The notes: a model not told the origin generated them from the sequence alone. A stretch of 26,322 bases of DNA from a virus (IMGVR_UViG_3300045988_013119:1-26322); one strand, 5' to 3'; positions 338 through 22,579 are shown, counted from the stretch's first letter. Numbers and translations: made by a program.

Positions 338-355
338 AGGCCGCAAGAGCGGCCT
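338..355. terminator. Hairpin AGGCCGC-AAGA-GCGGCCT between convergent ORFs, candidate bidirectional terminator
   Basis: A 7-bp GC-rich stem with a 4-nt loop sits between the stop of 74-331 (+) and the stop of 354-1082 (-). T/A-rich tracts flank it on both sides. Confidence 0.45.
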
Positions 356-1082
356 ATCGTTTCGCTTTGTGCTCATCCCAGCACGTTTTGCACCATGCCA
401 TTAAGCCGTCCGCATTTTGATTATTAGGGTAAAAGCTGGTTCGTTTTCTGCGGACATTACAAATTGGGCACCACTTCATATGGCGTGTATTCTTTGGGCC
501 ATCGAGACACCTTGCACACCACTTAGTCAATCCATCTGGATTTTTTGACGATTTCCTGAATTTTTCATATGGAAGGTTTATTCTGCATCGCAAGCACTGC
601 TTGCTACCACTTGAAACTCTGTTAGCTGATTCTTCTTTTGGCGGCGATGCAGAAGGTATTCTTGCTGGCTCTGATACTGCCTGAGGTGCTTTTTTAGATG
701 ACTGAGACGATATGTCATCACCAGGGAATCTTCCATGATATGCCGGACGCGTTGACACTCCAGGTGGAAGCTCAGCTGTAAACGGCTTTGGCTGAATCAG
801 TTGCCTCTCTTTTGCTAACTCCTGCTGTTTATAATATGTCTGGATTACCGCACTATCATAAGCAGGAGGTGCGGAAATATTAGGCGCATTACCTCCAGTT
901 TTTTGAAACTGAGTAGAGGTGTGTTCTATCACCTGTGTACGATTAATCGTTATCTCCCCATCTTCGGTCTTTATCGTTTTGTTATGATTAACGACCGTAC
1001 GATCAGAGATCTTAGTCTTGTTCTGGTTGATAACGTAAATAATCACCGCAACCACACCAACAACTATCCAGAAAACTTCCAT
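354..1082 (-). CDS. Membrane-anchored protein with a C-terminal tandem Cys-rich (zinc-ribbon-like) domain; function unknown
   Basis: 242-aa ORF with GAGG 7 nt upstream of the ATG. Residues 4-18 (FWIVVGVVAVIIYVI) form a hydrophobic helix followed by K/R residues, then a Ser/Pro/Gln-rich linker. The C-terminus carries repeated CxxC ... DGL..WCxxC units (CLRC...PDGLTKWCARC; WCPIC...ADGLMAWCKTC). Confidence 0.8.
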   Translation of the reverse strand: MEVFWIVVGVVAVIIYVINQNKTKISDRTVVNHNKTIKTEDGEITINRTQVIEHTSTQFQKTGGNAPNISAPPAYDSAVIQTYYKQQELAKERQLIQPKPFTAELPPGVSTRPAYHGRFPGDDISSQSSKKAPQAVSEPARIPSASPPKEESANRVSSGSKQCLRCRINLPYEKFRKSSKNPDGLTKWCARCLDGPKNTRHMKWCPICNVRRKRTSFYPNNQNADGLMAWCKTCWDEHKAKR

Positions 1083-1211: not shown

Positions 1212-1476
1212 TTTACATCGCACTCCTCTTGTGCCATAGTAATCGGGCACTGGATTTTGCCAGTGCCGGGATTGGCGTCCCGGGTTACTACAGAGGCACA
1301 TATGCCGCATAAGCGGTTTTTTTATGTGTAAAGCGCACCTATTCTATGGTGGGCTGTGTGGGGGCACCGAAAGGTGCGCCGGGTCCTTTGTAGCCGGTTA
1401 CGCCAACCCTGCACAGTTCACCACCAACCGATTGGCGTCGGTAGTGGTGATTAACCTAACTACAAAGGTGATCACT

Positions 1477-2163
1477 ATGACTGCTAACGTAACCCCATCT
1501 GTTTTTCATTTTGAATCAGAGGCAACCATTCGAGCCATTGTTATTGATGGAAATCCTTGGTTTGTTGCCAAAGACGTTATTAAAGCTCTTCAACTGACAA
1601 ACCCCACTATGTCAATAAAATCTCTTGATGATGATGAAAGGGCTAAATTTAACTTAGGCCGTCAAGGCGAAACCAATATTATCAACGAGTCAGGCCTCTA
1701 CACACTGATCCTCCGCTGCCGCGATGCGGTGACACCAGGCACTATCCCCTACCGCTTTCGTAAATGGGTTACAGGTGAGGTTCTTCCTCAGATCCGCCGC
1801 ACCGGAAGTTACATTAAAAACTCGCTCCCGCAGGAAGAACGCATAAAGATGGTTGCCGACCAGGTAGCCAACGCCACGGCGTCAGCAGTAATGCAGGCGA
1901 TGAAGATAGAGAACAAAACCTACAGTGCCCCGCTGAAGCCCGGCTACCGCAGCCTGATTCACTCGCCGTCTGGTGTTCTCGGCCTGACGGAGAACTCACT
2001 GCTGATGAATCTGCTGAACCAGTTACAGGAAGACGGGCACGACGTATCGGGCGCGGCGGCAGAGCTGACCACCATGTTCTGCTACATCGTCGGTGTGAGC
2101 AAATGCCTGCGTGATATCCAGACGCACGCGGAGTACATCAACGACAAAGCAGGATTCTTCTGA
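1477..2163 (+). CDS. Phage antirepressor with Bro-N/KilA-N-like N-terminal domain
   Basis: ATG at 1477 with AAAGGTG 7 nt upstream; the ORF track's longer start at 1324 lacks an RBS and runs through structured leader. The N-terminal region (FHFESEATIRAIVIDGNPWFVAKDVIKALQL...) is typical of the Bro-N antirepressor family as I recall it. Confidence 0.8.
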   Translation: MTANVTPSVFHFESEATIRAIVIDGNPWFVAKDVIKALQLTNPTMSIKSLDDDERAKFNLGRQGETNIINESGLYTLILRCRDAVTPGTIPYRFRKWVTGEVLPQIRRTGSYIKNSLPQEERIKMVADQVANATASAVMQAMKIENKTYSAPLKPGYRSLIHSPSGVLGLTENSLLMNLLNQLQEDGHDVSGAAAELTTMFCYIVGVSKCLRDIQTHAEYINDKAGFF

Positions 2164-2311
2164 CAGAACGGCGGCACATGGATGTGCCTTTAAATAATTC
2201 TGTACAGATTGCAGACTGTTGGTGAATAGCGTACTATTACCTCAAGGGTAAACGGATTGGTTTCATTTTTATTAATCCGTGTAATGAACTTATGAGATAT
2301 GAGGTAATGTC

Positions 2312-2485
2312 ATGCGAAACGAAAAATTGCAGATGCGTAGAGCGCAAGCTGCCGCAAGACGTTCTTTCAATGGAAGCGTAGAGTGCGTAAAAGTTACTAT
2401 GACAAAAGATCACGCAAGTCGCGTATCCCGCGCTTTCTTTGATTCTCGTAACAATAAGGAAAATTATGAGTTCGTCTGCGTCGCA
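2312..2485 (+). CDS. Small basic ORF (57 aa) overlapping the start of the YafO-like gene; candidate partner/antitoxin, unverified
   Basis: ATG at 2312 with GAGG at 2301-2304 (7-nt spacing). The ORF ends 20 nt inside the downstream gene, the usual toxin-antitoxin overlap geometry. It is below the size cutoff of the supplied ORF track. I recognise no homology. Confidence 0.3.
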
Positions 2486-3011
2486 GAATGATAAAAATCA
2501 AATTGTCAGATATAAGGGTCGAGTATTGCATACGCAAAATTTCTCGGCCCTTTGTGCATCTGATCTTGAGCTGAAGAAAGTATCTGATGCCTTTACCCAG
2601 TATTGGAAAACGGGATACCATCCATCTCTTGGTAAAGATGCTGCATTTGCTCGTCCGACAGAAATGCTTAAACTAAATGTCAGGCATACTCATGTCGATA
2701 ACCAAGACTATATTCCAGAAGATAGTGATAAAAAACACACTGGTAAAAAATCATCTTGGGATGCATGGAAAAATATAGCGTCTGTGCAAGTAAAATGCAT
2801 ACCAACAAGTGATTGCTTTTTAGTTTATTCGGTAAATCACAATCGTGATGCGCTGGTTATGTTTTTTGTTGACGCAGATGCCCACAACATAACTGAGCAA
2901 GAAGAGTTTAAAGAGGCAGCAATCACTATCAGTTATCAATTCTTTGAGAAAACAAAAACAGAACCAATGCCTTTAGAAGAAGATCTTTTTTCTGATAAAT
3001 GGAAGGAATAA
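2466..3011 (+). CDS. YafO-toxin-like domain protein (181 aa) encoded on a moron-like cargo locus
   Basis: ATG at 2466 with AAGGA upstream; the track's 2439 start lacks an RBS. Motifs GKDAAF...VRHTHVD...FLVYSVNHNRDALVMFFV...ADAH parallel the E. coli YafO motifs as I recall them (GRDALY...VAHIHL...HLVYCQG...). The gene looks AT-rich by eye, has its own terminator and is transcribed opposite to the tail genes. Confidence 0.7.
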   Translation: MSSSASQNDKNQIVRYKGRVLHTQNFSALCASDLELKKVSDAFTQYWKTGYHPSLGKDAAFARPTEMLKLNVRHTHVDNQDYIPEDSDKKHTGKKSSWDAWKNIASVQVKCIPTSDCFLVYSVNHNRDALVMFFVDADAHNITEQEEFKEAAITISYQFFEKTKTEPMPLEEDLFSDKWKE

Positions 3012-3032
3012 GCCCGCGTTGCGGGCTTTTTT
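3012..3032 (+). terminator. Rho-independent terminator of the YafO-like gene
   Basis: GCCCGC-GTT-GCGGGC hairpin followed by TTTTTT, immediately after the TAA stop at 3009-3011. Confidence 0.7.
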
Positions 3033-3072
3033 GTGTCTGCGGATTCCCGCCCGGGCGGCGGTGGCATTCGTT

Positions 3073-3116: not shown

Positions 3117-3257
3117 TTATGACAAGCCTATGTACCCTGCTACACCAGATAATATCAAAATAACTGCAACAGCAAATTCGCCATCGTCAATGATACATTT
3201 ACGGTTCATAACGCCAAGTGCAACAAGCGCAAACACAACAAGAATAAAAGCAATCAT
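3117..3257 (-). CDS. 46-aa small membrane protein (two predicted hydrophobic helices), holin-like candidate
   Basis: ATG with AAGGATGAG RBS 9 nt after the stop of the 824-aa gene. Translation is MIAFILVVFALVALGVMNRKCIIDDGEFAVAVILILSGVAGYIGLS. Absent from the supplied ORF track because of its size. Confidence 0.5.
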   Translation of the reverse strand: MIAFILVVFALVALGVMNRKCIIDDGEFAVAVILILSGVAGYIGLS

Positions 3258-3266
3258 TTCTCATCC

Positions 3267-5741
3267 TTATTGCGGAGTGACATCCTGTGGTCGCCACCAG
3301 TATGTCTGGTTAAACTCTTTCTTCGAACGTTGCTCCATTTTACGCAAATAGCCTGGTGAAAAATACTCCTGCATCTGGTTAAAGATCATGTGATCGAGAG
3401 CCGCCTTTAAGTACCAGAGATTCGCACCTGGCATCAAACCTTTCCCCAGCTTCACCAGATCACCACCAGTCTGCTCACTCTTCCCTTCCACAGCATTTAA
3501 CGGTATGCCCTGAGCAATCTTCACTACGTCATCAACCAGACCAGCTACCGGGCCAAGCATCGACGCCAGCGCGCCGCTTCCGTACCTAGTGTGATCTGAC
3601 AATAAAAAGTCACCGTAAAGGCCAAGACCACCACCTTTCAGTAGAGCACCAAGCCAAAATTTAGCAGCATCTTCTCCTGTCATCTCGCGAGGATTACGAC
3701 CAGACGCAAGGTCGTTAAGTTGCTGCGACAAAGCGCCAAGAATGGTCGTACTGGCAATAAACGTCGCAATATATGCCGCACGCCCACCAGCAGACGGCAT
3801 ACCCATAGCGCGTGACCAGTGACGCATAACTACCGAGATAGGGAACGATTTAAACAGGAAAACACTTCTCGTTAATTCACCTTTCCATGTTCCACGCTGA
3901 ATACCAGAACCGGTTATCAGTTGCTCACGTGCTCCCGGTGTAATAACAGCCATATCAACTTCTTCAGTTACGGCACCGAGAAGTTTACGCATTGCCTCAA
4001 ATTTCACGCGTTCAGGCTCACCAAGATGTTTAACTGCTGAATCAGGGATACGCATAATGCTTTCCGGTGTCAGCATCGTATTATTGCCGTTCCCCCAGTC
4101 CTCCTGTTGCGCCAGCTTCCATACGCTCCAGTCTGTTTCAGTAATCCCTTTGCTTTTCAGGATACGAAAATCAGAGTCATCGAGGCTACGAAGGTCTGGT
4201 GTCCGTGACACTACCTCTCCCAGGCTTCCCATCATTGTTACGCCATAGGCGCGCTTGTGCGCATCTGACCATGCTGTAAGCCCACTGGCACGCATTACCG
4301 CCGTTGCCGCCCAACGAGACACAGACGGCCCCATATTATCCATTGCCCAGCGGTTAACACTGCCAAGTAGAGATTCCATCGCCAGACCAGCGCGGCGCGC
4401 CCGCGCAAGCTCAGTACGGTTCGTTGGGTCCATAGCTTCAAGCTGGTTGCGGAATAACTGGTTCATTGGAAGGTTGGTCACCTTCGCAGACAGATACATG
4501 GTTCCAAGATCAGAGAACGATGACAGCAACGCGGATCCTAGTCGGCTGGCAACCAGCCAGTTGCGGATATTGTCAGACCAGCGCGCGATGTGCGGATTCG
4601 CTACAGGCTGTGTCTTTCCGGAAATAAAGTTGTACAGATTCTCTGTGTTGTTCGCCAGCCGCTCGACTTTACCGGTTTTACTCGGGTTAGCTGTTGCCGT
4701 TTCTGCCTTCACCTGATCAAGAAGAGAGCGGAAAACATGATCGGGGTTTGGGCCATATGTTTCCACCAGTGCAATATCTTTACTGATACCTTCCAGGTGA
4801 CCGACCATGATTTCCCATAGAGAGCGATCGCCATAAAGTTGCTGATATTGCAGATAGGAATCTGCATCTTTGAAATGTATCTGTCGTGATGCATTACCCC
4901 GGTTAGCACGTGCGCCGGAAATTCGCATTCCGGTATCAGTAAGCTTATTCAGCCCACCAGTAGCGATCGTGTTATAAGCCTCTCCAAGAAATGCAGACAA
5001 CTCGGCATCGTTCATCAGTTGTCCATCGACTCGGGTATAATATTTGCGATCCAGCTTACCTATAACATCGCTAACCCACTTATCCTTTGATACCGCCCCA
5101 ACCTTTTCCATAGAATGATGTTGAGGGATCCCCCAGTTTTCGAGATAGCCAATGTCCCCACCAGCATCATTAAACCGGCGGCGCAGTAGCTCTGTCACTT
5201 CTCTCCACGCCTTAGCACCTTTTCTTGCTTTAGCATTGCCAGTATTTTGCCCTCGCATTTCATATACCAGGTCACGCACGCCAGCTTCATCTTCAAACAG
5301 GCCAAAAAAGCGAGGATCAACTGCTTCAAATGCCTCCTGCAATTGACTCAATGCATAATCACGAGTGGCTTTTGTTCTGGATTCAACAGAGAGGAAATTC
5401 GATTTACCGTCTGCATTAAAAGCAATAGTACGGTTAAGAGCGCCAAGTTTCCCATCAGCCCCTTGATAGCTATTGATAAATTTATCCAATCTCTGACGTG
5501 CGGCTATAGTGAGAGCCACACGACGTTTCTTTAATGCCGCTTCTCGCTGTAATTCTTCAGATGCCAATTGTGCTGCACGATACAACCGTTCTGATTCGGA
5601 AAGTTGTCGCCACGACATCGGATCATCACGAGCAATGGAGCGCATATTTCGATAAATGCGGTCTTCAATGTTCTGTATTTCTCGCGCCGTTAACGTGCGC
5701 TGCGCCGCCTGCTGGACCGCTTGTATACATTCCTGTCTCAT
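3267..5741 (-). CDS. Large internal virion (ejection-type) protein, 824 aa
   Basis: Last large ORF of the structural operon, with GAGG RBS. The C-terminal third contains hydrophobic Gly/Ala-rich segments typical of podovirus ejection proteins. Position matches the T7 gp15/gp16 slot. Confidence 0.8.
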   Translation of the reverse strand: MRQECIQAVQQAAQRTLTAREIQNIEDRIYRNMRSIARDDPMSWRQLSESERLYRAAQLASEELQREAALKKRRVALTIAARQRLDKFINSYQGADGKLGALNRTIAFNADGKSNFLSVESRTKATRDYALSQLQEAFEAVDPRFFGLFEDEAGVRDLVYEMRGQNTGNAKARKGAKAWREVTELLRRRFNDAGGDIGYLENWGIPQHHSMEKVGAVSKDKWVSDVIGKLDRKYYTRVDGQLMNDAELSAFLGEAYNTIATGGLNKLTDTGMRISGARANRGNASRQIHFKDADSYLQYQQLYGDRSLWEIMVGHLEGISKDIALVETYGPNPDHVFRSLLDQVKAETATANPSKTGKVERLANNTENLYNFISGKTQPVANPHIARWSDNIRNWLVASRLGSALLSSFSDLGTMYLSAKVTNLPMNQLFRNQLEAMDPTNRTELARARRAGLAMESLLGSVNRWAMDNMGPSVSRWAATAVMRASGLTAWSDAHKRAYGVTMMGSLGEVVSRTPDLRSLDDSDFRILKSKGITETDWSVWKLAQQEDWGNGNNTMLTPESIMRIPDSAVKHLGEPERVKFEAMRKLLGAVTEEVDMAVITPGAREQLITGSGIQRGTWKGELTRSVFLFKSFPISVVMRHWSRAMGMPSAGGRAAYIATFIASTTILGALSQQLNDLASGRNPREMTGEDAAKFWLGALLKGGGLGLYGDFLLSDHTRYGSGALASMLGPVAGLVDDVVKIAQGIPLNAVEGKSEQTGGDLVKLGKGLMPGANLWYLKAALDHMIFNQMQEYFSPGYLRKMEQRSKKEFNQTYWWRPQDVTPQ

Positions 5742-19341: not shown

Positions 19342-19358
19342 ATTACCTTTCAGGTAAC
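19342..19358. promoter_or_regulatory. Operator-like inverted repeat ATTACCTTTCAGGTAAC (copy C)
   Basis: Shares ATTACCTT-N3-GGTAA with copies A and B. A perfect TTGACA hexamer lies at 19321-19326, and the 10-mer AATTATTACC is also present at 19276-19285. Confidence 0.4.
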
Positions 19359-21943: not shown

Positions 21944-22536
21944 TGATTACCATCCTGACGTTCTTTGAGTCGCTTCCTGGCTGCTGCTATGCGATCAGCA
22001 ATTGTCACATTCACATTAACATCCAGACGTTCTTTGAATGCGTTGACATCAACATGCTTACCAATCAGCTCAAGGTTCTTCACCTTGTCAGGCCATTTAA
22101 TTTTTTTGAGGATTGTCTCTATTGAATCCTCGTTCATGTTCATGATGGTCGATGACAGATCAAAGCCACTAAGCGTAGTGCGCCAGATTTTCGGCCACTC
22201 ACGGATTGGTTTAAGGCTCCCATCGTCGTTGAGGATGTCGATCACGTCCATCTGGTCGATCTCCACCAGGCGCATGAGAACGTAATCAGCACTGACACGC
22301 ATTCGTTTGTTGCGCTCCTCCATCAACTCGGCAATCCGTTTCTGAATGCGTTCATCGCGCATCATGACACTGGCTTTAACTGCCGCTGTATTTGGGGAGA
22401 ATCCTGCGTTAATCGCAGCCTGAGTCTGGTTTTCAGGCGTTTTGATGTATGACTGGCAATAAGCCTCCTGCATTGCTGTGAGCGGCTTAAATTGCGTTGA
22501 TTTGCGTTTATAGGTTTTAGGTTCAGCAGGCATCAT
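21940..22536 (-). CDS. Terminase small subunit, 198 aa
   Basis: Start moved to the ATGATG at 22536; the track's TTG at 22614 would run through the terminator-like hairpin. The N-terminus (KPLTAMQEAYCQSYIKTPENQTQAAINAGFSPNTA) has the typical small-terminase pattern. Confidence 0.8.
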   Translation of the reverse strand: MMPAEPKTYKRKSTQFKPLTAMQEAYCQSYIKTPENQTQAAINAGFSPNTAAVKASVMMRDERIQKRIAELMEERNKRMRVSADYVLMRLVEIDQMDVIDILNDDGSLKPIREWPKIWRTTLSGFDLSSTIMNMNEDSIETILKKIKWPDKVKNLELIGKHVDVNAFKERLDVNVNVTIADRIAAARKRLKERQDGNQ

Positions 22537-22579
22537 AACCACCGTGGTAATTGTTACCGTTGTGGTAATAGTACCATGC

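Follow-up and report, generated by a model that had tools for sequence, protein, structure and literature searches.

The window analysed here, the whole stretch of 26,322 nucleotides of viral DNA, carries two overlapping genes near its start, both on the + strand, placed between a putative promoter and an intrinsic terminator:

2209..2237, + strand, putative sigma-70 promoter read from the sequence: TTGCAG (2209-2214), a 17-nt spacer and TACTAT (2232-2237)
2237..2251, no strand, dyad TTACC-N5-GGTAA across the -10/+1 region; an operator-like motif found phage-wide, with which the conserved left flank ends
2252..3071, + strand, swappable cargo cassette, bordered on each side by conserved prophage DNA; boundaries approximate
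2301..2305, + strand, putative Shine-Dalgarno sequence GAGGT read from the sequence, 6 nt 5′ of the small-ORF start; TGAGG is kept in most related loci
2312..2491 including the stop codon, + strand, small ORF, candidate antitoxin of 59 aa with a pI of 9.9; gp45 of phage TL-2011b, phrog_6685
2456..2460, + strand, putative Shine-Dalgarno sequence AAGGA of the toxin gene, within the small ORF and 5 nt 5′ of ATG 2466; ATAAGG is kept in the alignment
2466..3011, + strand, gene for a long-form YafO-family toxin of 181 aa, from ATG 2466 to TAA 3011; gp44 of TL-2011b, phrog_1651, RefSeq WP_001555165.1
3010..3035, + strand, intrinsic terminator AAGCCCGC-GTT-GCGGGCTT followed by TTTTGT; stem-loop at 3010-3028 with an 8-bp stem including 6 G-C pairs, then the T run

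The two reading frames overlap by 26 nt, and the presumed ribosome-binding site of the toxin gene lies inside the small ORF, a layout that fits translational coupling. An earlier reading made from the sequence alone (the sequence-only reading) had already assigned a 181-aa product to 2466-3011 and seen a clean intrinsic terminator at the gene end, and both agree with the coordinates given above. It also described the upstream ORF correctly as basic, but its extent of 2312-2485, with 57 aa and an overlap of 20 nt, was too short and is corrected here. The AT-richness noted by eye was confirmed by a windowed calculation: the GC content of 2200-3032 is 0.391, the lowest of all 833-nt stretches in the window (mean 0.497, sd 0.026), and the toxin gene alone has a GC content of 0.375 and a GC3 of 0.30. 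As for orientation, the locus had been described as transcribed opposite to the adjacent tail operon. The cassette is indeed convergent with a minus-strand virion/injection operon, but the neighbouring Bro-N gene (RefSeq start 1477) lies on the same strand as the cassette, which is therefore not an isolated opposite-strand unit.

Some features of the immediate neighbours were also recorded. The Bro-N/antirepressor-like gene occupies 1324-2163 (+) when the ORF is taken mechanically from 1324 (279 aa), while the RefSeq start gives a protein of 228 aa; its stop codon is followed by a weak hairpin at 2170-2188 (GGCACAT..ATGTGCC). On the other side, the virion/injection operon ends with a very hydrophobic 46-aa ORF at 3117-3257 (-), which belongs to phrog_7892 and has a RefSeq annotation; its minus-strand terminator at 3097-3080 faces the cassette terminator.

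YafO-family proteins are endoribonucleases of the RelE/HigB fold; they stop translation by cleaving mRNA within the ribosome or close to it. The 181-aa protein had been placed in this family from its motifs, and a profile-HMM search supports the assignment. The protein matched the Pfam family PF13957 (YafO_toxin) over residues 46-148 and profile positions 3-88 of 101, with a score of 25.9 bits against a cut-off of 25 (E 1.1e-5), which is a small margin. NCBIfam held no specific model for it and gave sub-threshold noise only for either cassette protein, and in PHROGs the families of the toxin (phrog_1651) and of its partner (phrog_6685) are each listed as ‘unknown function’. A word-indexed search with the toxin returned no more than 27 close clusters; their members are about 180 aa long throughout and come from Enterobacterales wherever the organism is named. 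We then compared a profile of 23 close homologues with 1.8 billion representatives and obtained 70 cluster representatives, YafO-like only, about 40 of which are long forms of 165-200 aa, with canonical YafO (~130 aa) at the weak end of the matches. PF13957 was matched by 37 of 56 aligned members of the toxin superfamily, with a best E-value of 1e-39. In this 56-sequence alignment, which includes E. coli K-12 YafO, the residues F43, G56, H76 and H140 are invariant and G50, P64, W98, S115 and Y121 are nearly so; the motifs GKD, RHxH, TSD..LVY and AH are aligned and kept between the 181-aa toxin and E. coli YafO.

An AlphaFold model of the toxin, of moderate confidence (pLDDT 62, pTM 0.62) and poor over residues 51-120 including the RHxH motif, showed the RelE/ParE-superfamily (BECR) fold. 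No significant match was found when this model was compared with the BFVD structures, profile searches of PDB sequences gave spurious matches only, and a sequence search of the PDB found no solved YafO structure. Among alleles that are 71-80% identical the toxin gene has a dN/dS of 0.04-0.13, indicating purifying selection. With a profile match above threshold, links to canonical YafO, retained motifs and a RelE/HigB fold, the 181-aa protein is a real though divergent YafO-family member, and it looks like a functional endoribonuclease that would cleave RNA. The toxin call as such is not new: the RefSeq entry for this protein already reads ‘type II toxin-antitoxin system YafO family toxin’. Published work refers only briefly to YafO-like genes of prophages or tailocins (PMC9836087, PMC4684702).

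Compared with E. coli YafO the protein has about 49 extra residues. The sequence-only reading had placed about 50 residues at the C-terminus, which does not hold: the additional length is split over three segments, with residues 2-18 extending the N-terminus, 89-108 inserted internally and 164-181 extending the C-terminus. Only the long form has these three segments, and they are conserved (W98, W101 and an LFxDKW motif). Together with the marginal Pfam score, this conservation would suit a domesticated, non-toxic domain, one that for example binds the ribosome or RNA without cleavage, in which case the pair would be ordinary accessory phage genes. We consider this improbable, given that every superfamily-invariant residue is retained, that purifying selection is strong, and that the mobility and the strict pairing of the two genes, described below, resemble those of toxin-antitoxin modules.

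We then analysed the small upstream ORF. The sequence-only reading had made its proposal depend on a coding signal of this ORF in homologous loci, and such a signal is present. The dN/dS is 0.19-0.25 in its own frame but 1.0-1.3 in the two other frames; a value of about 0.2 confined to its own frame indicates that the ORF is a protein-coding gene, also under purifying selection. Homologues of the 59-aa protein keep a constant length of 59-60 aa in Salmonella, Hafnia, Lelliottia and Serratia. Its central segment VKVTMTKDHASRVSRAFF and its hydrophobic-acidic C-terminus YEFVCVAE are conserved, while the N-terminal helix of the short partners is basic (RRAQAAARR and equivalents). The ORF is annotated in TL-2011b as the hypothetical gp45, whereas the E. 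coli RefSeq records listed omit it with one exception, and a literature search found nothing on the protein.

In sequence and structure comparisons the partner resembled no described antitoxin. No Pfam, NCBIfam or PADLOC model was matched by any of the partners, and no recognised antitoxin or DNA-binding domain was found in the 59-aa protein. Its structure model consists of three helices without a compact fold (pTM 0.32) and had no structural match in the PDB. Moreover, the protein gave no YafN, Phd or RelB signal and no match to PF02604, so that two earlier observations stand, namely that the ORF is unlike YafN/RelB and that the locus lacks a recognisable YafN-type antitoxin. The charge pattern is also unusual: the partner has a pI of 9.9 and the toxin a mildly acidic pI of 6.0, while type II pairs usually show the reverse.

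Two further ideas about the small ORF were rejected. The C-terminal tail of YafN can be aligned with the partner motif by eye and by MAFFT, but homology was not supported by hhalign (P = 0.05, probability 1%) nor by an HMM of the partner core, by which YafN ranked 270th among ~4000 shuffled YafN sequences. A cis-regulatory RNA in the small ORF or its leader was likewise discarded: Rfam gave nothing above noise, the folding z-score was -0.79, and the alignment fold had a positive covariation term with one compensatory pair. Separately, we observed that synonymous divergence in the small ORF (2312-2465; pS ~0.31, dS 0.4-0.8) is several-fold below that of the adjacent toxin gene for the same locus pairs (2493-3008; pS 0.65-0.77), where it is near saturation. 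Conserved RNA structure does not account for this low divergence; a recombination breakpoint or a constraint at the nucleotide level is possible.

The association of the two genes was then followed across loci. A small ORF of 55-67 aa overlaps the toxin start in all of the 51 related loci (51/51). Toxin homologues at 28-46% identity are preceded by small basic ORFs of 53-84 aa that can be aligned with the 59-aa protein, and these distant pairs lie between siphovirus tail genes, in an Arsenophonus prophage, at a chromosomal site beside a type I restriction-modification (R-M) gene and on short metagenomic contigs. A canonical YafO of 131 aa is also preceded by an alignable small partner, of 62 aa. 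Longer partners of 108-139 aa occur in phage EC.W1-9, a Rahnella plasmid, a Klebsiella phage-like plasmid and other E. coli prophages, and they end in the same motif, a VKVTMTKDHASRVSRAFF-like segment followed by a hydrophobic-acidic C-terminus. What is conserved between short and long partners thus lies in the centre and at the C-terminus rather than in the basic helix. The identities of partner and toxin co-vary (Spearman 0.93), and in the E. coli genomes both genes are complete in all 63 copies, with no toxin-only copy. The pair has moved as a unit, being found at the podovirus hotspot described below, in a siphovirus tail region, in other prophages, at the R-M-adjacent site and on plasmids. 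The sequence-only reading had left the choice between a toxin-antitoxin module with an uncharacterised antitoxin and a solitary toxin domain. Because the small ORF is conserved, under selection and always co-inherited, the two-gene toxin-antitoxin module is favoured over the solitary toxin, and the 59-aa protein is most likely the antitoxin of the pair.

Alternatively, the YafO-like enzyme could require the small protein for its expression or activity, as a regulator or cofactor that binds nucleic acid, with the neutralising factor encoded elsewhere or absent. The arginine-rich basic N-terminal helix of the short partners, the dissimilarity to every antitoxin family searched and the unusual combination of a basic partner with a mildly acidic toxin all agree with such a role. 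However, the partner is upstream, overlapping and co-diverging in every context examined, what is conserved is the central and C-terminal segment, as expected of a toxin-binding region, and the toxin does not occur alone among the 63 E. coli copies. We therefore hold a regulator or cofactor to be quite unlikely and retain the antitoxin assignment.

Over this region the window is identical to a prophage carried by E. coli strain 85.0412, and it shares 98.7% identity with phage TL-2011b. The cassette occurs in 61 of 5426 complete E. coli genomes, whereas flank DNA matches were found in ~538 E. coli genomes, which include these 61; in the records inspected, the flank DNA was located in a sister prophage. 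In sister prophages and Phi05 phages the flank matches end near 2251 and restart near 3072. Other cargo follows the Bro-N gene there: a divergent YafO pair, which in the sister prophages consists of a 108-aa partner and a 170-aa toxin; a DUF4760 protein; a small ORF with a DUF2335 protein; or a 210-aa hypothetical protein. The differing cargo at the same post-Bro-N site indicates a cargo hotspot, with a swappable unit at ~2252-3071. The host element is an epsilon15/TL-2011b-like E. coli prophage, and the cassette is exchangeable cargo within it. We also observed that a 53-aa ORF annotated as ‘transmembrane anchored’ is often present 3′ of the hotspot cargo. Neither cassette protein matched the PADLOC-DB 2.0 models of described defence proteins at E-values up to 1, and the hotspot context is only suggestive of a role in defence.

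Expression of the cassette appears to depend on sequences that belong to the phage rather than to the insert. The putative promoter at 2209-2237 scores 8/12, under the scanner threshold, and its -35 TTG and -10 TAnnAT are kept in related loci. It sits in the conserved hotspot flank, outside the AT-rich insert, and precedes unrelated cargo genes too. The dyad that overlaps it has constant arms and a variable spacer in related loci. Five exact copies are present in the window against 0.00 expected (1103-1117, 1196-1210, 2237-2251, 19343-19357 and 22554-22568), with a one-mismatch copy at 22536-22550. TL-2011b contains 10 copies against 0.08 expected, at positions 5172, 5234, 5946, 8227, 8289, 11590, 14819, 33333, 34385 and 34478. 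Three of the latter flank a gene for an HTH (CI-like) repressor, two on one side and one on the other, and further copies precede terminase, portal-side, Bro-N and cargo genes. Most copies lie directly 3′ of a -10-like hexamer, usually with a TTGAYN -35 sequence ~17 nt upstream. With unrelated cargo behind it and copies throughout both phage sequences, the dyad was rejected as an autoregulatory operator specific to the toxin-antitoxin pair, and as it is the only conserved dyad at the cassette promoter, no such operator was found there. The motif is probably the predicted operator of one phage regulator acting at ~10 promoters, likeliest that of the prophage repressor.

If so, expression of the cassette from a silent prophage is doubtful. 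This weakens the earlier description of the locus as a classic moron while keeping a role in the lytic cycle possible: the own terminator and the low GC content fit that description, whereas the promoter comes from the conserved hotspot flank and carries a dyad common to ~10 phage promoters. T4 RegB is a RelE-like nuclease that degrades host or early mRNAs. By analogy, the cassette could serve lytic growth, with a promoter that the prophage repressor shuts through the dyad, a YafO-like RNase made on induction or infection that degrades host or early mRNAs, and a small protein that times or restrains it. The position of the dyad over the -10/+1 region of the cassette promoter and at ~8-10 other promoter-like phage sites, including both sides of the HTH repressor gene, is in line with this idea, as is the use of one promoter by unrelated cargo at the same site. 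Nevertheless, the dyad-binding repressor is a candidate only, and a site that holds unrelated accessory genes and carries the cassette in only 61 of the ~538 flank-matching E. coli genomes indicates that the cassette is dispensable for lytic growth. The same gene pair is moreover found outside phages, on plasmids and beside R-M genes, which is typical of autonomous toxin-antitoxin modules. We regard a dedicated lytic-cycle function as unlikely.

The reading that we prefer, at a probability of about 0.62, is that the cassette is a type II toxin-antitoxin module and an exchangeable piece of phage cargo, in which a long-form YafO toxin is paired with a minimal basic antitoxin. The downstream gene would encode a long-form YafO endoribonuclease, and the upstream, translationally coupled gene a basic protein of 59 residues that would bind the toxin and neutralise it, with the central segment and the hydrophobic-acidic C-terminus as the likely contact elements. 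Once synthesis of the small, probably labile partner ceased, free toxin would be expected to arrest translation. The likely benefit to the phage would lie in competition, in defence (abortive infection or exclusion) or in addiction. Against this reading stand the marginal Pfam score, the moderate toxin model, a partner without a known domain, the reversed charges and the lack of a PADLOC match.

The best-known relative is YafN-YafO of the E. coli K-12 dinB operon. The two systems share the toxin family PF13957 with the motifs GR/KD, RHxH, (T/S)SD..LVY and AH, and an antitoxin gene upstream in close coupling. K-12 YafO differs in its length of 132 aa against 181 aa here, where the N-terminus is extended, 20 residues are inserted and the C-terminus is 18 residues longer, and its direct hhalign comparison with the profile of the cassette toxin is weak (probability 6%). 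YafN is a 97-aa acidic protein that matches PF02604, in contrast to the basic 59-aa partner without a Phd/YefM domain, and the K-12 locus is chromosomal whereas the present cassette is phage cargo. Pairing with YafN (Phd/YefM-type) is a K-12 feature that is absent here and from some other PF13957 loci. The sequence identity of the toxin to the ribosome-dependent mRNA interferases HigB2, HigB and RelE (5mje, 7nbu, 6af3, 2khe) is only 4-13%, and the antitoxins of those systems, unlike the 59-aa protein, carry HTH domains. HigBA has the toxin gene first, while PF_YafO systems are listed as antitoxin then toxin in a 2025 review, in which the ribosome dependence of YafO is treated as debated (PMC11980606). 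The order in the cassette, partner then toxin, agrees with the order listed for PF_YafO.

Among the sampled loci, YafO toxins are accompanied by partners of several types. The divergent YafO pairs found at the same prophage site, on Klebsiella/Rahnella phage-plasmids and in phage EC.W1-9 resemble the cassette in a toxin of 168-171 aa, an overlapping upstream partner and the same C-terminal motif, but toxin identity is ~31% and the partner, of 108-139 aa, has a longer and different N-terminal part. IncFIB plasmids of Klebsiella, Enterobacter and Escherichia carry PF13957-type toxins of canonical size with an abutting, unannotated upstream partner, as in the cassette; these partners, however, are 165-205 aa long, unlike YafN and without evident similarity to the 59-aa protein, and may constitute a third class of YafO partner. 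Given that the IncFIB toxins pair with such unrelated proteins, partner exchange appears common in the family, and the K-12 pairing with YafN is one of several. A Pseudomonas plasmid likewise carries a YafO-family toxin of canonical size with an abutting unannotated upstream protein of this kind.

What appears to be new here is the partner family, its consistent pairing with long-form YafO, and the hotspot and operator context. A more far-reaching proposal, which we put forward tentatively and consider less probable than its negation, is that the 59-residue protein founds a family of minimal basic antitoxins without a known DNA-binding fold, the usual partner of long-form and some canonical YafO toxins in phages, plasmids and chromosomes, and that here the pair is placed under a prophage-repressor operator, silent in the lysogen and firing only on induction or infection. 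If true, a repressor-wired pair of this kind would be regulated in a way that is unusual for toxin-antitoxin modules borne by phages.

YafO is among the least studied toxins of the RelE superfamily, and a distinct long-form branch of it is accompanied by a tiny partner protein that automated annotation mostly misses. Since the partner is mostly unannotated in the RefSeq E. coli records, such loci look like orphan toxins. If the partner family were recognised, these annotations would be corrected, structural studies of how YafO is neutralised would gain a small two-protein system, and a further candidate class of cargo would be known for a well-defined prophage hotspot, which could be examined for effects on exclusion or defence. 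Should the phage-wide dyad be the repressor operator, the locus would also provide a simple test of the timing of toxin-antitoxin expression from a phage.

A further observation concerns a gene elsewhere in the window. The ORF at 354-1082 (-) encodes a 242-aa protein with a hydrophobic N-terminal segment and a cysteine-rich C-terminal region; the protein's own family is phrog_6762. Two stretches of the C-terminal region match zinc-ribbon-type families, with a weak match to Pfam Stc1, and its PHROG matches include endonuclease VII, HNH and Lar-like restriction alleviation families. In TL-2011b the counterpart of this region is annotated just as a misc_feature, ‘similar to hypothetical protein’.
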